Assembly: GCA_048882385.1 (NCBI GenBank) | Contig: JBHLRQ010000001.1 | Location: forward strand, 79,340-141,750 | Direction of reading: 5' to 3' | Length of the DNA stretch: 62,411 bases | DNA from: Candidatus Thorarchaeota archaeon | GTDB taxonomy: Archaea; Asgardarchaeota; Thorarchaeia; Thorarchaeales; Thorarchaeaceae | Shown: piece after piece, positions 4,088 to 12,139 of the stretch | Position numbering within the stretch: position 1 is the first letter of the stretch | How the letters are laid out: each line of letters begins with the position of its first letter | Translations under genes and position numbers: made by a program | Notes under the pieces: generated by a model | What the model was told of the DNA's origin: nothing | What the model saw: the letters and a program-made list of their open reading frames with translations, nothing else | Databases searched by the model: none

Positions 4088-5074
4088 GTGCTTGAGAGTC
4101 CAATAGAAGGATGTTTTATTGTAACTATTGACAATCTCATCTTTGAGGTTAAAGGAGTAGTTCATCCAAAGGATCGGATTATTGCATACCTTCGCTATAT
4201 TCCTTCGATAGATTCGGATAGTGGATTCAGAAAGGTGTACAATCTTGAGGAACGAGAGAACTATCTCAGAGAGAACTATCCAGATTATTTGTGGTACAGC
4301 GAACCTTATGGAAGATTGATACAGTCAGTTTCGATGAATAAGATTGAATCAATTCTTGATCCTGTAGATTATTTAGCTCAGTTGCAGAGCACAGATAAGA
4401 TAACACATCTAGAACAGGTATCTGTTACCCTAGCAAAGAAATTAGTAGAAACTACTGAGATTGATTGGAGAGATATTGGACTAACAGGTTCTCAGCTTAT
4501 TGGTGTGGCAGGTAAAGATTCTGATATTGATTTGGTAATATATGGATCATCAGCTTGTCGAAAATTCTACTCTAATCTCTCAGCAAGAATTAATAGTATT
4601 CTTGAAATCGAGAAATATTCTGGTAAGCTACTGGAAGACCATGTTTCATTTAGATGGGGAGCTCATAATGAATTACGTTCTCTTCTTCTAGAGATTGAGA
4701 GAGATAAATTGTTACAGGGTTTGATTGGTAACTATCATTTCTTCATTAGATTGGTAAAGACGCCAAGTGATCTTGACTATGATTATGGTGATTTGTCTTA
4801 TCAGATGTTGGGTCATCAAAAAGTATCTGGAAAAGTGATTGATAGTAGTGATTCAATATTTACACCCTGTGAATATCAAGTAACATGTGTCAGTAATCCA
4901 AATCTTGAGAAACTTGTAAGCTATCGAGGAAGATTTACAGAACATGTTTCAGCAGAAGATAAGTTTGAAGCATTTGGAAGACTTGAGTTAGTAATAGATC
5001 ACAAAGTTGACAGTCAGTATATGCAACTAGTACTGGGTGAACTTCCTAGTGATTATCTGATTCCTATCAAGTAA
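4088..5074 (+). CDS. Predicted nucleotidyltransferase (Pol-beta superfamily, COG1665-like)
   Basis: GLTGSQLIG...SDIDLVIYG signature; N-terminal FEVKG..HP..RIIAYLRY; GTG 4088 preferred. Confidence 0.75.
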   Translation: MLESPIEGCFIVTIDNLIFEVKGVVHPKDRIIAYLRYIPSIDSDSGFRKVYNLEERENYLRENYPDYLWYSEPYGRLIQSVSMNKIESILDPVDYLAQLQSTDKITHLEQVSVTLAKKLVETTEIDWRDIGLTGSQLIGVAGKDSDIDLVIYGSSACRKFYSNLSARINSILEIEKYSGKLLEDHVSFRWGAHNELRSLLLEIERDKLLQGLIGNYHFFIRLVKTPSDLDYDYGDLSYQMLGHQKVSGKVIDSSDSIFTPCEYQVTCVSNPNLEKLVSYRGRFTEHVSAEDKFEAFGRLELVIDHKVDSQYMQLVLGELPSDYLIPIK

Positions 5075-5092
5075 TCATACATCGATTCTGAA

Positions 5093-5532
5093 TTCACAAT
5101 CTGTTCATGTTTACATAAATTCACACATAGTTAGTGTGAATGGCGCCAATATTGTGAACACTCTGTGAGAAACAGTCATCTTATCGCCTTAAGAATAGAA
5201 TAGAGGTACGATATATGCGGTGATGCCTGTGAATAAGCACACCCCTTCGTTTCCAGTGGAAACAGGTAAGAAGAGATATGAAATGCTTTCATGTTCATTC
5301 ACAAGGTTCATAGATTAGTGAATAATGAAACAAATGGAGAGTCCCGTTTATTTACCAAAAAAAGACCTCATAATCCTTTTTTGTGTTCAAATGGACTTCA
5401 CAGGACGTCAGCACAGTAAATACAGGGTGGACGAGGTCTTTATGTGTACAGACGCACTATGTCGCTCTTATCTTGGTATAGATAATTCACATACTCACAC
5501 TTATTTGCAATATCATTATAGTTGATTGTGAA
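5093..5532. repeat. Cluster of nine TGTGAA/TTCACA boxes
   Basis: Copies start at 5093, 5120, 5135, 5153, 5228, 5298, 5397, 5486, 5527; includes inverted repeat ATTCACAC-N7-GTGTGAAT at 5119-5141. Confidence 0.8.
5241..5263 (-). promoter_or_regulatory. ORB-like element (origin recognition box)
   Basis: Reverse complement reads GTTTCCACTGGAAACGAAGGGGT: TTCCAxTGGAAA dyad plus G-string, as in archaeal ORBs. Confidence 0.75.
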
Positions 5533-5559
5533 TAGTCAATAGTATAGGAGATTCAATAA

Positions 5560-6186
5560 TTGACAGACGACAGGAGTAACTATGTGTATGAATTCACTTA
5601 TAGCTCAGCTCCTGGTCTACGCGAGATCTTTCAGTGTAAGTATGTCCAACCGGATGAGGCTCTCAACAGATTTAGGAAAATACTAGCATTGACCGAATCA
5701 CCCTTTGATTTCAAGATAGTCGTATCAGATGAAACAATGGGAGAAGAATCTAGTTTTCAGGTCAAAGGTGGTAGTATCGAGGAAATGTTTGTCAAGTTTA
5801 AGGTCTTCTTGGAAACAAGTACCGGATATATCTTTGAACCAGTCAGTAAAGAAACCACAGAGGTCGGATTAGAAGATACACGATTTGAATCTATGAGTAA
5901 CTATGACAAGATGCAAGTGATAATCTATGCATCCTTTAAACATGGAAAGTTCTCCTCTCTCGATGTTACTGAAATCTATCAAGACTCTTTCAATGAAGAT
6001 TTGCCTAAGAGTACAGTATCTACCTATCTTGCTAGAATGTGGAATAATGGAAAGGGCCATCTAGAGAGATATGGAAATCGTTCTGGTTATACGTATAGAC
6101 TTCGAACAGAAATTGCAGAAGTCCAGAAAGAAACTGAAAGAGCAGAAGAGCTTTTAGCTGCCATACAAATGCGAGTTGGGGAATGA
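5560..6186 (+). CDS. Hypothetical protein with C-terminal winged helix-turn-helix
   Basis: FSSLDVTEIYQDSFNEDLPKSTVSTYLARM...LERYGNRSGYTYRL fits a wHTH pattern; SD-like AGGAG upstream. Confidence 0.7.
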   Translation: MTDDRSNYVYEFTYSSAPGLREIFQCKYVQPDEALNRFRKILALTESPFDFKIVVSDETMGEESSFQVKGGSIEEMFVKFKVFLETSTGYIFEPVSKETTEVGLEDTRFESMSNYDKMQVIIYASFKHGKFSSLDVTEIYQDSFNEDLPKSTVSTYLARMWNNGKGHLERYGNRSGYTYRLRTEIAEVQKETERAEELLAAIQMRVGE

Positions 6187-6215
6187 AATCAGGTCACTCC
6201 CCATCAATTTGACTG

Positions 6216-7532
6216 TCACAAATCAAAGACTTTTTCGTCCATCTTGATATCAAGAGATTCTAATTCCTCTAGAATAGGTTCATAGATTTCGGGAATAATA
6301 GGTCTATGAACTCCGGTTAAGGAAATCTCACCTTCTAAGATCATCCTGCTTGCTATAGCAACAGGTAGAGCTACAGTTCTTGACATCGAGCTGTCACCAT
6401 TTGGAATACCATAGTCAATGAGAGTTGAAGTGACCTTCTGTTTCTTATCGGGATATTCTACTATGAATTCATGATGCATAACTATCATATCACGCTCTCC
6501 AGGTGCATACTGTAGCTTCTCTTCAAAGAGATTACAGAGAGCGTCTAAGATTGTGTTTATACCTGAAGGAATCTGTTTTTCTTCGAATAGGCCCAACCAT
6601 TCTAGACGCTTGATGATAGGATCATCCTGTTTGATACCACATGTCTTGGCGACTGCAAGTTCAATGTCTAGTTCATCAGTTGATGTTAGCTCTCGCATGA
6701 GACCAGCATATGTTGTTCCATCAAAGGATCTTTCTTCAATATCTAGAAGACCCAGATCAGCAATTTTGTCTAGCGTATCACACCAACCAACATTTCTGAA
6801 TGTCCCACGAAGCATGGTTTTTGTTTCTTGAATGTTGTAGATATCAATGTAAGAAAGACTATCTCGGTTTGGATATCCTTCGAATGTACCTATACCGGGG
6901 ACTTCCATAAGCTCACAGTTCTGAAAGAGATCTGCGCCAGGAATTTTGATTTCTTTTCCATCTCGAAGGAATAGTGCATCATTCCGACCAGCAAGAAGTA
7001 CACCTCGTGGACTCCATGATAATTTGTAGCCGTATGGATTATTGTTAGCGTCAGGAGCTGGAAGTCCACCTGTGAAGGAAGTGAAGCTTACAATCTTACC
7101 ATTGTTATTATGAGCTTCATCAATAATCTTCATTGCACTCATGTGATCAATGCCTGGGTCGACTCCACACTCATTTAGAAGTAATATGCCAGCTTTCTTC
7201 GCATCGTTTTCAAGTGCTTTCATTTCATCGGAAATATATGATGTAGTGCAAAAGTGAGTCTTGTGTTTAATTGCAACTTTCGCGGCCTTGACATGATATG
7301 TGTAAGGTAGTAATGAACAAACAAGGTCAGCTTTCTTAGTGAGCTCTTCAAGTAGTTCATCATTTTCTGCAATATTGAAAGCGACAGCTTCTGTATTCTT
7401 GCATCCCTCGATTAGACGTTCAGCTTTACTCTTTGTACGACTAGCAACAATGACATAGAACCCATTGTCTGAGAGATATTGGATATATGGGCGAGCAACT
7501 AAGCCTGCGCCCAGACACACTATTTTTTTCAT
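6216..7532 (-). CDS. Saccharopine dehydrogenase (glutamate-forming; Lys9/AASS C-terminal type)
   Basis: LGAGLVA Rossmann motif, NECGVDPGIDHM, YKLSWSPRGVL, EGYPNRDS, MSRTVALP. Confidence 0.92.
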   Translation of the reverse strand: MKKIVCLGAGLVARPYIQYLSDNGFYVIVASRTKSKAERLIEGCKNTEAVAFNIAENDELLEELTKKADLVCSLLPYTYHVKAAKVAIKHKTHFCTTSYISDEMKALENDAKKAGILLLNECGVDPGIDHMSAMKIIDEAHNNNGKIVSFTSFTGGLPAPDANNNPYGYKLSWSPRGVLLAGRNDALFLRDGKEIKIPGADLFQNCELMEVPGIGTFEGYPNRDSLSYIDIYNIQETKTMLRGTFRNVGWCDTLDKIADLGLLDIEERSFDGTTYAGLMRELTSTDELDIELAVAKTCGIKQDDPIIKRLEWLGLFEEKQIPSGINTILDALCNLFEEKLQYAPGERDMIVMHHEFIVEYPDKKQKVTSTLIDYGIPNGDSSMSRTVALPVAIASRMILEGEISLTGVHRPIIPEIYEPILEELESLDIKMDEKVFDL

Positions 7533-7543
7533 TCGTTGTTCTC

Positions 7544-8836
7544 CTATTGGATATATTGTGTGAGATATTGATAGTTCTCAGTTAATCTACCCTGGTATAC
7601 GATTATTGCATCTTTGAGCTCTCGGGGTAGATCGAGCTCTGAAAATGGTAAAGTAAAATCTGCTCTTGCCAAAGCAGGAATAAAATCGAGAAGTGTTTCA
7701 CTGAACGACATAGATGATTCTCGTGGAAGTTCAGCTGGAAGATTGTCAACTGCCATCACGACTGGACCATCGCCTTTGACACCCAATTCAGCTCGATCCT
7801 CATCAATAATGTATGTGAATGCGGGTCTGTCTGGCTTTGTACAGTTTAAGGTAAATTCAATCGCACCTTGTACATCACATGATATGTCGCCTACAATCTG
7901 GAGTTTTCGAAAGTCTTGTTTCCAATATTTTTTAATGAACTCCTTAGTAATTAGGCGAGGATACTTATCAGACCAGTAAATGCAATTCATGAGTATAGTA
8001 ATGTGTGGAATATACTTGTGAAATATGCCTACATACTTTGCTTTTCCATTCTTGTAGTAGTCTTGAAGATCAAACTTCTGAGATGGATCTTTGGGTTCAA
8101 CCATATGTTCTTCCTTGAAAACGCATTTGTATATCAAGTCTGATTTTGGAGGCAGTCCGTCAATTTCATCTGGATTAACAACTTTGTGTGGAAGAATATT
8201 GAATATCTCTTGAGCTCCTCTTGATACATTACCATATCCTGCAAAGCCAATTACAAAAGGAGTAAGCTCTTTGGGAAGTCCCTGCTCCTTGATACGAGAA
8301 CCAAGATCAGAGAATTCCTGTTTCAGTTGGTCAATCCCTCCAAGTTCAAGAGTTGGTTTCATTTCTGCAAATGGATTAGGTCTGATACCTTGTGACTTTA
8401 GACGATTACCAAGCATTCGGAAAGTATCTGATATCCCAGCCATTCCTGCCCAGTTTCCAAAGAAGATTAGTCTTCGACCCTTATCATCAACAACACGTTC
8501 GTAATCAATCAGAGTCGCTCCAACATCCATGATTCGTTTAAGCATTGGCATATTGTAATCTTGACCCTTGATAGTGTGACTAAAGAATACATAGACAATG
8601 TTCTTTTCAAAGAAATCGATAGGCATTTCCTTGATTCCTAGTACAACAGGTGTTTTACTACCTTTTAATGGTAAAACTTCTGCCTGATACTCATCTTCTT
8701 TGAATGCTCGTTGATTGCTTGGTTCAAGAACAAATTCAATGTTATGATTTTCATTTAGTAGTTTGACATGATCAGGTATCAATGGGACTCGGGTTTCGAA
8801 TGCTTTCTCTTCTTTCCTAAGTCCAATTCGGTTCAT
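7544..8836 (-). CDS. Lysine-ketoglutarate reductase / saccharopine dehydrogenase (lysine-forming; AASS N-terminal type)
   Basis: ETRVPLIP, FFSHTIKGQ.YNMPML, LIDYE, GYGNVSRGAQEI, DISCD..GAIEF, AVDNLPAELPRESS. Confidence 0.9.
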   Translation of the reverse strand: MNRIGLRKEEKAFETRVPLIPDHVKLLNENHNIEFVLEPSNQRAFKEDEYQAEVLPLKGSKTPVVLGIKEMPIDFFEKNIVYVFFSHTIKGQDYNMPMLKRIMDVGATLIDYERVVDDKGRRLIFFGNWAGMAGISDTFRMLGNRLKSQGIRPNPFAEMKPTLELGGIDQLKQEFSDLGSRIKEQGLPKELTPFVIGFAGYGNVSRGAQEIFNILPHKVVNPDEIDGLPPKSDLIYKCVFKEEHMVEPKDPSQKFDLQDYYKNGKAKYVGIFHKYIPHITILMNCIYWSDKYPRLITKEFIKKYWKQDFRKLQIVGDISCDVQGAIEFTLNCTKPDRPAFTYIIDEDRAELGVKGDGPVVMAVDNLPAELPRESSMSFSETLLDFIPALARADFTLPFSELDLPRELKDAIIVYQGRLTENYQYLTQYIQ

Positions 8837-8966
8837 TGGATAATCTCCTATATCATGTATCAGACAATGTCGACCGCCGTGCTACCTACGCTTTAACTTT
8901 TCCGTGCAGGCTATGTATTACTAGCACTCAAAATCAGAACACGTGTTCCTTAATTGGTCGTTTCAA

Positions 8967-9257
8967 TTGAGTTCATATTTGTATCTCTATGATTGTCGTC
9001 ATGCAAGACGTACTAATGCAAGACGAGTTGCATTTACGAAGGAGCTTTACGGCTATACATATTCTTGGAAAACAAAGTCTGGAGTCAAACAGAAAAGAAA
9101 ACCTGGTCTCTTAGATGAATGTCTAGGAGCTATTGCGGTTGCTGATTCAGCAATATTAGTTCCATCTGAACATCGTATTGTTTTTGATTCTCTCTTTGAA
9201 ATGTATGAAGATATTCTAAAGATTCGGATCTATGAAGTAGTTCAAGAAATCATATAG
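8967..9257 (+). CDS. Small hypothetical protein, possible Cas2/VapD-like ferredoxin fold
   Basis: YLYLYD N-terminal strand, helix RVAFTKELYGY, VADSAILVP; TTG 8967 preferred over GTG 8943. Confidence 0.55.
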   Translation: MSSYLYLYDCRHARRTNARRVAFTKELYGYTYSWKTKSGVKQKRKPGLLDECLGAIAVADSAILVPSEHRIVFDSLFEMYEDILKIRIYEVVQEII

Positions 9258-9343
9258 AACACGTGTTCTATCTGCTAATACTTGTAATACAATGAAATTG
9301 TATCAAAAATAATCTTAGAACATGTGTTCTGAAGACATTCGAA

Positions 9344-9508
9344 CCCCCTTGTTTCCACTAGAAACTATTCAAAAATGTCTAATCGTTAAAATATCCAAAA
9401 ATATTTATAATCGTTTATTCAGCTGCCATTTATCTCCATTTTTTTAATGCATATACATACCCTCGCTGCTTGAATTCTCCATAGATCATTCCACTGGAAA
9501 TCAGGGGG
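9344..9508. promoter_or_regulatory. oriC: Candidate replication origin: two inverted ORB-like boxes flanking an AT-rich spacer
   Basis: 9344-9365 (-) GTTTCTAGTGGAAACAAGGGGG; 9489-9508 (+) TTCCACTGGAAATCAGGGGG; 123-bp AT-rich spacer. Confidence 0.7.
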
Positions 9509-9630
9509 TCTTATCCGAGAAATACTAACTAGAACACGTGTTCGAAATACAAAAAATAAGGGCTAAGACCACAAAACTGATACATCATTCGTATTCCCAC
9601 TCGAAACATCCAAACATGGAGGATTAGAGA

Positions 9631-11523
9631 TTGGCCAAAGCCAACGAACTTCTTGAGGATAAACCAGGAAAAGAAATTCTTCTCCTTGCCAATGAAGCAA
9701 TTGCTCGAGGTGTATTAGAAGCCGGTGTTCGACTTGTCGCTCTCTATCCTGGCACACCAAGTAGTGAAATTGGAAACAATCTGACATCCATGGCACCTCA
9801 CATACCAAACTTCTACTTTGAATTCAGTACAAATGAGAAGGTTGCTCTGGAAGTGGCAGGGGCAGCTGCTGTTGCAGGTGTGAGATCCATGATGGTCTGT
9901 AAAGGTCCAGGTCTCAATGTAGCAGCTGATCCATTCTTTTCACTTACATATGTTGGTGTTCGGGGAGGAATGGTGGTAGTTGTAGCAGATGATCCAAGTA
10001 TGTGGAGTTCTCAAAACGAAAATGACAGTAGATACTATGCGCTCATGGGAAACATGCCAATGATGGAGCCTGCTGATCCAATTGAAGCAAAATCTATGCT
10101 TCTTGAAGCCTATAAGTTCTCAGAGCAACTCGAATTACCAGTACTGTTTCGTACCACTACTCGGGTTAATCATACACGAGCTCCTGTGACGTTCGGAAAA
10201 ATACTACCTCGTCCAGATAAAATCGAGTTTGAAAAGGAACCATTCCGATTCGTCCCTGTTCCATCTGTTGCACGTAAACGACACCCTTGGCTCCTTAAAC
10301 AGATAGAGAAAGCGAAGGAATTGTCTGAAAAAAGTCCCCTGAACTATGTTGAGGGAAAAGGCGACCTTGGGATAATCACTTCTGGCGTTTCATATACATA
10401 TATAATTGAAGCACTTTCCTACATGGAAATCAAAGCTGAGGTTCTGAAGCTTGGAATCACTCATCCAGTTCCTGAGAAAATGATCACAGAATTCTTGCGT
10501 CGTCATAAACAGGTTATGATTGTAGAAGAATTAGAACCATTCCTTGAAACACATGCTAGACGGTTAGCACATTTGAACAAAGTCAATGTCGACATCCTTG
10601 GAAAAGAACAAGGTATCTTCTCTCGTACCTACGAATATAGTCCAAAGATTGTAATGAATGCTCTAAAGGAAATTACTACACGTAATACACCTATTAATTG
10701 GGAGGCCATTGACAAGAAAACAAAGGAACTACCTGAATTACCCCCAAGACCCCCACTTCTATGTGCTGGATGCCCGCACAGAGCAACTTACTATGCAATC
10801 CGAACTGCGACAAGAGGAAAAGCAATCTATCCTTCAGACATTGGTTGCTATACTCTAAGTATTGCACCTCCACTAGAAACAGCTGATATCCTGTTCGATA
10901 TGGGATCTTCAATAACTACTGCATGTGGTCTTGCTGAAGTCACAGACCAAGACGTTGTTGCAACTATTGGTGATAGTACATTCTTTGCATCTGGTCTTCC
11001 AGGCATTGCAAACGCAGTTTATAATCAACATCGAATCTGTGTTGTAATACTTGATAATCGAACCACTGCCATGACAGGTCATCAACCCCATCCTGGTACA
11101 GGAATAACAGGTATGCAAAAAGAAGTTCCACCTCTGGATATTGCAGAAGCATGCAAAGGTCTAGGCGTCAAATATGTCAAGACTGTTGAACCATTCGAAT
11201 CAATGGCAAGTTTGGTTGCTGAAGTACGTGAGATGGTAAAATGGACAAGAGAGAATCATAGTCCTTCAGTACTAGTTTCGATAGAGCCATGTGCACTTCT
11301 CACTGCAGCAGAACGTCGTCGAACAGGAGAATTTCCACCTAGGTACTTTGTAGATCCAGAGATATGTAATGCATGCAAACGTTGTCTCAATCGCCTTTCT
11401 TGTCCTGCAATGTACATGGATTCAGAAACAGAACAAGCTGTGATTGATGAAACTCTGTGTAATCTCTGTGGGACCTGTGTTTCAGTTTGTCCACAAGGCG
11501 CAATAAAACAGGAGGATGCCTAA
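9631..11523 (+). CDS. iorA: Indolepyruvate:ferredoxin oxidoreductase alpha subunit
   Basis: NEAIARG, YPGTPSSEI, NEKVALE, PPRPPLLCAGCPHR, DIGCY, IGDSTF, C-terminal ferredoxin Cys motifs. Confidence 0.95.
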   Translation: MAKANELLEDKPGKEILLLANEAIARGVLEAGVRLVALYPGTPSSEIGNNLTSMAPHIPNFYFEFSTNEKVALEVAGAAAVAGVRSMMVCKGPGLNVAADPFFSLTYVGVRGGMVVVVADDPSMWSSQNENDSRYYALMGNMPMMEPADPIEAKSMLLEAYKFSEQLELPVLFRTTTRVNHTRAPVTFGKILPRPDKIEFEKEPFRFVPVPSVARKRHPWLLKQIEKAKELSEKSPLNYVEGKGDLGIITSGVSYTYIIEALSYMEIKAEVLKLGITHPVPEKMITEFLRRHKQVMIVEELEPFLETHARRLAHLNKVNVDILGKEQGIFSRTYEYSPKIVMNALKEITTRNTPINWEAIDKKTKELPELPPRPPLLCAGCPHRATYYAIRTATRGKAIYPSDIGCYTLSIAPPLETADILFDMGSSITTACGLAEVTDQDVVATIGDSTFFASGLPGIANAVYNQHRICVVILDNRTTAMTGHQPHPGTGITGMQKEVPPLDIAEACKGLGVKYVKTVEPFESMASLVAEVREMVKWTRENHSPSVLVSIEPCALLTAAERRRTGEFPPRYFVDPEICNACKRCLNRLSCPAMYMDSETEQAVIDETLCNLCGTCVSVCPQGAIKQEDA

Positions 11524-12139
11524 AATGTCTGGTAATAATGGTAATACAGTGAATATTGCTATCACTGGAGTAGGAGGCCAAGGAGTTTTGACTCTTGCTG
11601 AAGTACTAGCTAAGGCAGCATTACAATGTGGTTTTAATGTGCGTGTTGGAGAAATTCATGGAATGGCTCAAAGAGGAGGTCATGTCGTTTGTACAGTTCG
11701 TATTGGAGAGAATGCTAAAGGTCCAATTATAGATCCTGGTTCTGCTCATCTTCTCGTTGGCTTCGAACCCATTGAAACCCTAAGAGAAATCCAACTTGTA
11801 AAAGAAGGGGGTTGTGTCCTGATGAGCTCACATGTCCAATATCCAGTTGCAGTTTCAATGGGACAAGCAGAGTATCCTGATCATGATGAAATTATCAAGA
11901 TTATGAAGAAATATACTGATAAGATAGTTGAGTTTGATGCTTTGGAACTTGCAACAAAAGCTGGGAGTACACGAGCGCTCAACATGGTCATGTTGGGAGC
12001 AATCATAGGTACTGGTCTTATTTCAATCACTGAGAAGGTTGCAATGGAAGTTGTCAGTAATGCCTTCCCAAAGAAATTCGAGAAAATCAACACTGCAGCA
12101 GCAAAACTAGGACTCGAACAGGCAAAATCATGTTGCTAA
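11516..12139 (+). CDS. iorB: Indolepyruvate:ferredoxin oxidoreductase beta subunit
   Basis: GVGGQG, EIHGMAQRGG, NMVMLGA; overlaps iorA stop. Confidence 0.95.
   Translation: MPKMSGNNGNTVNIAITGVGGQGVLTLAEVLAKAALQCGFNVRVGEIHGMAQRGGHVVCTVRIGENAKGPIIDPGSAHLLVGFEPIETLREIQLVKEGGCVLMSSHVQYPVAVSMGQAEYPDHDEIIKIMKKYTDKIVEFDALELATKAGSTRALNMVMLGAIIGTGLISITEKVAMEVVSNAFPKKFEKINTAAAKLGLEQAKSCC

Follow-up and report, generated by a model that had tools for sequence, protein, structure and literature searches.

An intergenic region of a Thorarchaeota (Asgard) genome is likely to hold a functional chromosomal replication origin of the oriC1 type, as predicted from two inverted ORBs that flank an AT-rich spacer, a third ORB at a distance, and the conservation of this arrangement among relatives. 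The locus very probably represents the canonical archaeal origin architecture, newly placed in Thorarchaeota, with the exception that the initiator gene has moved away in Thorarchaeaceae. The window analyzed here, a stretch of 62,411 nucleotides (C1:79340-141750), belongs to a draft genome of 3,698,314 bp (3.70 Mb; G000; 256 contigs, 95.3% complete). The left ORB of the pair (9344-9365, minus strand) reads CCCCCTTGTTTCCACTAGAAAC on the plus strand and GTTTCTAGTGGAAACAAGGGGG on the minus strand, with its G-string running leftward, away from the spacer. The right ORB (9489-9508, plus strand; TTCCACTGGAAATCAGGGGG) carries its G-string rightward, and both boxes are conserved in the genus alignment. 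A third ORB (5241-5266, minus strand; GTTTCCACTGGAAACGAAGGGG) lies 294 nt upstream of a winged-helix (wH) gene. A sequence-only reading of the window had picked out the inverted pair, the 123-bp spacer and palindromes 14 and 23 bp outside the boxes as an ORB-DUE-ORB origin candidate. Its coordinates and sequences were verified, and the candidate is supported by its uniqueness in the genome and its conservation; a lack of conservation in relatives, which that reading had named as evidence against an origin, is not what was found, as the boxes are conserved across both genus and family. The third ORB, two additional palindromes (8937-8948 and 9257-9268) and the recognition that the ORF at 8967-9257 is a real gene were absent from it.

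The 12-nt ORB core by itself was not significant (15 matches with ≤2 mismatches, against 8.3 expected). When the core (TTCCA[CG]T[GA]GAAA, ≤1 mismatch) was required to have GGGG within 12 nt, only four sites were registered genome-wide, three of them at the origin locus and the fourth (C4:52038) inside a 444-aa coding ORF, and the origin locus is the sole ORB cluster in the genome. An ORB-type origin is recognized by two or more ORBs with a dyad core and G-string, of which there are three here, and by inverted ORBs flanking an AT-rich, easily melted spacer, which is the arrangement of the pair. The spacer (9366-9488; 123 bp), a candidate duplex-unwinding element, has an A+T content of 71.5% compared to a mean of 59.4% for 123-nt windows, which places it in the top 0.8%. 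A helical-stability calculation on this segment, proposed in the sequence-only reading, returned low stability: the least stable 60-mer of the locus (9359-9418) is, among the non-overlapping 60-mers of the window, the fifth from the unstable end. Near the middle of the spacer lies a 15-bp motif, TTTATCTCCATTTTT (9429-9443, plus strand), which occurs once in the 3.7-Mb genome.

The pair lies within a 794-bp intergenic region (8837-9630) separating two divergent operons, with an LOR/saccharopine-dehydrogenase-like (LOR/SDH-like) gene pair to the left (6216-8836, minus strand), iorA-iorB to the right (9631-12139, plus strand) and hypF beyond these operons. A scan of 5000-9700 against Rfam gave no match at E ≤ 0.1. 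Of 24 same-genus genomes, 19 returned the intergenic region with E < 1e-30 and an identity of 69-81%; the remaining five, all 71-92% complete, gave three weak short matches and two blanks. Gene order was constant in the 20 genus loci compared, and the ORBs were ordered minus then plus in all 16 genus loci in which two ORBs were detected. A strict module pattern (palindrome, 14 nt, ORB, 123-126 nt, ORB, 23 or 57 nt, palindrome) fitted 17 of the 20 genus loci as well as the window, giving 18 aligned modules; outside the alignment are L012, truncated at its end, and two loci that did not fit the pattern, L025 and L027. Across the 18 modules the ORB cores are near-invariant, the spacer length stays within 123-126 bp and TTTATCTCCATTTTT is identical in every module, while the spacer around it varies. 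Variants of the motif (≤2 mismatches) were also found between or beside the ORBs in loci from other genera of the family (L029 to L033 and L040).

The orientation of the module is not fixed relative to its neighbors. The side with the tightly spaced palindrome faces the 96-aa gene at 8967-9257 in 12 loci (the window, L009 to L018 and L028) and faces iorA in nine (L019 to L027). On our own reading of these loci, the segment between the outer palindromes (9257-9543: ORB, spacer, ORB, inner palindrome) is inverted in 9 of 21 loci, the change having occurred during diversification of the genus, which suggests recombination between palindrome copies. Such indifference to the direction of the neighboring genes is consistent with a bidirectional origin and not with a promoter element. 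One species (G006, L021:3395-4723) carries an inserted ORF of 442 aa that separates the origin module from the 96-aa gene. At locus L101, from a Thorarchaeota isolate whose wH protein is 60% identical, the ORB pair lies ∼3 kb upstream of the third ORB and not downstream of the wH gene.

The sequence-only reading took G-strings pointing away from the spacer to be opposite to characterized origins, a view that phylum-wide and haloarchaeal comparisons contradict. In a scan of 121 genomes of the phylum, the pattern TCCASTGGAAAN{2,6}GGGG was matched in 66 genomes, whereas the reversed pattern, used as a control, gave two hits in total. Wherever two ORBs on opposite strands lay close together (17 genomes), the order was minus then plus (17/17), with the G-strings outward, and these pairs include those directly upstream of orc1 in other families. 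The same geometry is found at oriC1 of Haloarcula hispanica, where, on the printed strand, CCCCCC forms the left G-string and GGGGGGGG the right (Fig. 5 legend in PMC3936714). In pHH400, as read from its sequence, inverted 27-nt repeats upstream of the single Orc1 gene flank an AT-rich stretch of 312 nt with their G-rich ends outward; on our own reading these repeats (L184) would be the ORBs of oriP. The published account names oriP-cdc6K as the only origin of pHH400; it could not be deleted, and marker-frequency analysis supports it. H. hispanica oriC1 and the pHH400 oriP region, both genetically validated, thus resemble the present locus in having inverted ORBs around an AT-rich region with the G-strings outermost, although the core of the pHH400 repeats differs from that of the ORBs here, and these haloarchaeal origins, unlike the present one, adjoin and depend on their own cdc6 gene. 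A G-rich inverted repeat near the ORBs of H. hispanica oriC1 acts as an enhancer that modulates activity (PMC3936714), to which the extra repeats close by would be the counterpart here; the additional G-rich repeat of H. hispanica is described as lying “inside” the ORBs (PMC3936714), whereas the palindromes of the present locus lie outside them.

Outward G-strings are also the geometry to be expected, because the winged helix sits on the dyad and MCM is recruited to the DUE (PMC12141716). The G-string is recognized and contacted by the AAA+ domain (PMC3936714), and ORB2 and ORB3 direct MCM to the DUE between them (PMC12141716). An explicit statement of G-string orientation for Sulfolobus, Aeropyrum or Pyrococcus was not found in the literature text searched, and the polarity used here in comparisons with Sulfolobus and Pyrococcus origins was deduced from text and not from sequences. 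The polarity at the present locus is the one found at validated origins, as seen in H. hispanica oriC1 and the pHH400 oriP region.

An adjacent orc1/cdc6 gene, usual but not obligatory at ORB-type origins, is lacking. Its absence, already remarked upon in the sequence-only reading, holds for the 62-kb window but has to be qualified, as two Orc1 paralogs lie on the same contig: genome matches to TIGR02928 were found at C1:20669-21784 (Orc1-1-like; 422 bits; 67 kb from the ORB pair), at C1:64544-65635 (Orc1-2-like; 297 bits; 23 kb from the pair) and on other contigs. These two are the only full Orc1/Cdc6 genes of the genome, both outside the window, and no ORBs or repeat clusters were found beside either. 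A divergent third Orc1/Cdc6-like gene (G000:C102:6556-7500) scored 78 bits, below the family cutoff, and has counterparts of 73-80 bits in other genomes of the family.

The separation is not peculiar to this assembly. In the 11 family genomes with ORBs and paralog on one contig, an Orc1 paralog of 285-304 bits lies 12-42 kb from the ORBs; a paralog of 410-428 bits shares the ORB contig in 7 of the 11, at 54-157 kb, and in none of the 11 does either come within 10 kb. (The 1-Mb distance between orc1-1 and the ORBs in G140, the record behind L068, was not used, this being a scaffold with N runs in which long-range distances are unreliable.) Among the named loci, none of the 63 Thorarchaeota-like ones has orc1 within 6 kb, whereas all 11 distant ones do. 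Separation of orc1 from the origin is a trait of the whole family Thorarchaeaceae.

In other families, the outward pair lies upstream of the top-scoring Orc1 gene, at ≤3.6 kb in 32 of 34 genomes; the exceptions are G051 and G099, where the two are 10.3 kb apart. This count covers genomes with both features on one contig; in 17 further genomes they are on different contigs or orc1 was not listed. In G026, G029, G035, G068 and G124, the best Orc1 match (420-454 bits) has the pair 1.2-1.6 kb upstream, and in G029, G068 and G124 a third ORB hit lies ∼300 nt from that match. The same pair is the sole ORB cluster beside orc1-1 in the other families. These orc1-adjacent Asgard origins (G025, G026, G029, G035, G068 and G124; Hermod-, Odin- and Promethearchaeota loci L104 to L114) share with the present locus the ORB consensus, the outward polarity and a wH gene between the third ORB and the pair, with the 96-aa gene present in some families. 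They differ in having orc1 ∼0.3-1.6 kb away, in their longer spacers (190-400 bp versus 123 bp) and in lacking both the palindromes and TTTATCTCCATTTTT. In G025, which belongs to the same order but another family, the sequence of elements is orc1, ORB, wH gene, 96-aa gene, ORB, iorA, and this is probably the ancestral arrangement. In Thorarchaeaceae, the LOR/SDH-like genes separate the wH gene from the 96-aa gene, and orc1 is elsewhere.

Four copies of the palindrome GAACAYGTGTTC surround the ORB pair. One (GAACATGTGTTC, 9318-9329) lies 14 bp outside the left ORB, a gap kept at 14 nt in 18/18 modules. A second (GAACACGTGTTC, 9532-9543) follows the right ORB at a distance of 23 bp and precedes the iorA start by 88 nt; on this side, the 18 aligned modules divide into 3 with a 23-nt gap and 15 with a 57-nt gap. 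The third (9257-9268) overlaps the stop codon of the 96-aa gene, and the fourth (8937-8948) lies 19 nt upstream of the start of that gene and ∼100 nt upstream of the divergent LOR/SDH-like operon. These four sites (8 strand-matches) compare to 0.85 expected in the window, and none of 100 shuffles reached 8; all fall within 8937-9543. The genome holds 12 sites in total, and of the eight elsewhere six are intergenic near gene starts and two coding. Promoter-like single palindromes stand beside varied genes (G000:C157:2201, C1:54898, C29:26449, C87:1596, C137:437 and C143:4863). From the first residues of the ORFs, we take one of the genes beside the other sites to be deacetylase-like and another to be beta-keto-acid-cleavage-like. 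The exact palindrome was found in 17/17 sampled family genomes at 1-15 sites each (reversed control, 0) and was absent from the origin loci of other families (L034 to L039).

Operators are expected to be palindromic sites that recur near several promoters and are conserved in relatives, as GAACAYGTGTTC does and is, and the palindromes are most likely candidate operators of a Thorarchaeaceae-specific dimeric transcription factor. The targets of such a factor at this locus would be the 96-aa gene and the two neighboring operons (LOR/SDH-like and iorAB). The rigid 14-nt spacing to one G-string and the position of palindromes at the borders of the invertible segment nevertheless leave some scope for the origin itself to be directly affected. 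On that basis the palindromes could be an integral part of the origin and not ordinary operators, binding a second protein of initiator or accessory type (such as the wH, the 96-aa or the Orc1-2-like protein) that sets the boundaries of Orc1 and MCM or licenses firing. We regard this as rather doubtful. The clustering of four copies at a single locus would suit it, and there is a precedent in UBP and ucm, a sequence-specific protein with many sites that is essential at the origin (PMC12141716). However, most of the other sites are single, promoter-proximal and next to unrelated genes, and a perfect palindrome of 12-16 bp suggests a dimeric HTH factor, while Orc1 binds as a monomer. Nor are the wH and 96-aa proteins likely to bind the palindrome, because the origin loci of other families encode wH (together with the 96-aa protein in L034, L038 and L039) and lack it.

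Two small genes accompany the origin. The wH gene (5560-6186, plus strand) encodes 208 aa with a C-terminal winged-helix-turn-helix domain. Its protein is homologous (blastp 1e-10 to 1e-29, plus alignment A2) to that of a 150-166-aa gene whose position, in all the other families examined, is between the third ORB or orc1 and the ORB pair. Among 74 named related loci, the closest wH relatives reach 96% identity (e.g., Thorarchaeota isolates SMTZ1-45 and AB_25), and the distant ones belong to Hermod-, Odin- and Promethearchaeota. A Pfam scan of the wH family gave nothing above threshold, the best being Penicillinase_R (0.0024) in one member. A specific fold could not be assigned, as PadR/MarR-type proteins (Z 8-9) and Cdc6/Orc1 winged helices (Z 7.6-8.4) were tied, indicating a generic wHTH; Foldseek matches to Cdt1 C-terminal domains (E 0.004-0.009) were likewise tied with other wH matches.

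The 96-aa gene (8967-9257, plus strand; likely start TTG at 8967 from alignment A1) lies next to the ORB pair, and tblastn detected homologues at 29 of the 32 origin loci, those of distant families (L034, L038 and L039) among them. Its protein has 229 database homologues; among the 120 listed, none has a Pfam domain and those that are named are named only “hypothetical protein.” The Pfam scan of this family gave no match. The predicted fold is ferredoxin-like (AF2 pLDDT 92.8), and a Foldseek search returned nothing at E ≤ 0.001. The best VIA-align score was Z 7.9 to TM1266, followed by Cas2 chains (Z 6.1-6.5) and VapD (6.0). A Cas2-like identity was considered and is kept as a lead only, the scores lying within the generic ferredoxin-like background.

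The linkage of the wH and 96-aa genes to the origin is an observation and no proof of a role in replication. Speculatively, the third ORB, the small wH protein, the 96-aa ferredoxin-like protein and the ORB pair might form a conserved Asgard origin module, with both proteins as lineage-specific accessory factors of initiation, one of them perhaps reading the mid-spacer motif and the wH protein perhaps similar to Cdt1 or WhiP. On this view, the module would have lost its link to orc1 in Thorarchaeaceae and come to lie between operons of amino-acid catabolism, governed by a family-specific regulator that binds the palindromes. We hold this extended proposal to be improbable as a whole; if it were true, origin firing would be tied to nutritional state.

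The likeness of the locus to oriC1-type origins (Sulfolobus/Saccharolobus, Aeropyrum and Pyrococcus) extends from the inverted ORBs with dyad core and G-string and a ∼125-bp AT-rich spacer to a third ORB at a distance, and one departure is the initiator gene, which is not adjacent but 23 and 67 kb off. By analogy with oriC1 of Sulfolobus and Aeropyrum, one Orc1-1-type monomer would occupy each ORB, with its winged helix on the dyad beside the spacer and its AAA+ domain and ISM touching the G-string on the far side. Two inverted Orc1 molecules would then recruit MCM onto the 123-bp AT-rich spacer, and unwinding would start in its least stable left half. Orc1 binding, MCM loading and firing are predicted by analogy; observed are the architecture and its uniqueness, conservation and synteny. 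The invariant 15-bp mid-spacer motif is a probable site for an accessory factor. As a conserved motif midway between two ORBs it is placed like ucm of Sulfolobus (PMC12141716); its sequence differs from the 11-bp ucm (as taken from oligonucleotides printed in PMC12141716), and neither the ucm sequence nor many further genomic sites go with it, the motif being unique in its genome compared to >300 sites for UBP. In Thorarchaeaceae, Orc1 would have to act in trans, because orc1 is no longer adjacent, and the third ORB in the promoter region of the wH gene is probably a remnant of an ancestral order of orc1, ORB, wH gene, 96-aa gene and ORB pair.

Skew analysis, the check placed first in the sequence-only reading, speaks neither for nor against an origin at this locus. 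Over the 141.7 kb of contig C1, the cumulative GC skew is weak; it reaches its minimum at 18-20 kb by the orc1-1-like gene and only flattens near the ORB pair, and neither GC nor AT skew gave a decisive signal on this contig. The minimum (C1:18000-20000) is just upstream of the orc1-1-like gene and may reflect a gene-strand switch. In G140, skew was flat and wandering with no switch at the ORB locus; although titled “chromosome,” this record is a scaffold, nearly every one of the 69 sampled 20-kb windows containing N runs of at least 100. In one paper on the closed Odinarchaeum genome, the origin was chosen by skew alone. Because the present genome is a 256-contig draft, ∼95% complete, further origins outside the ORB locus could be missing from the assembly or be of a non-ORB type.

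A conserved ORB site need not be the site used, since Thermococcus kodakarensis reportedly replicates without Cdc6 or an origin. It is conceivable that the ORBs are kept as transcriptional control sites, bound by an Orc1 paralog, for the 96-aa gene, the wH gene and iorAB, and that replication starts elsewhere or by recombination. An ORB does lie ≤700 nt upstream of the wH homologue, in its promoter region, in 73 of the 74 named loci (in the other one the sequence breaks off at the gene), the orc1-2-like paralog stays at its 12-42-kb distance from the locus in all 11 family genomes, and the skew minimum on C1 is near orc1-1 and not at the ORB pair. Orc1-2 of Sulfolobales is described as a non-initiator regulator (PMC9738581). 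Control sites, however, would not account for retention of the full architecture, with an inverted pair, an invariant mid-spacer motif and an AT-rich spacer of fixed length; inversion relative to the flanking genes, as seen here, would be incompatible with a promoter element; and in other families the only ORB cluster beside orc1-1 is this same pair. We consider regulation without replication unlikely. Archaeal origins can be captured from extrachromosomal elements, an idea cited in PMC4010727, but a plasmid or viral origin, integrated here and distinct from that of the chromosome, is highly improbable given the synteny of the locus with core metabolic genes (LOR/SDH-like, iorAB and hypF) in every genus and family locus examined, the lack of any integrase or repeat borders seen there, and its standing as the only ORB cluster in the genome.

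Read as a chromosomal origin, the locus gives a precise, testable candidate for Thorarchaeota and, together with its relatives, evidence that ORB grammar and polarity are conserved across the phylum. Its points of interest are the family-wide uncoupling from orc1, the invariant mid-spacer motif, the bracketing palindromes and the two unannotated genes linked to the origin. The two small genes stay with the origin from family to family and are candidate genes for new initiation factors. The split of the origin from its initiator gene in a whole family would be a natural case arguing that Orc1 acts freely in trans.
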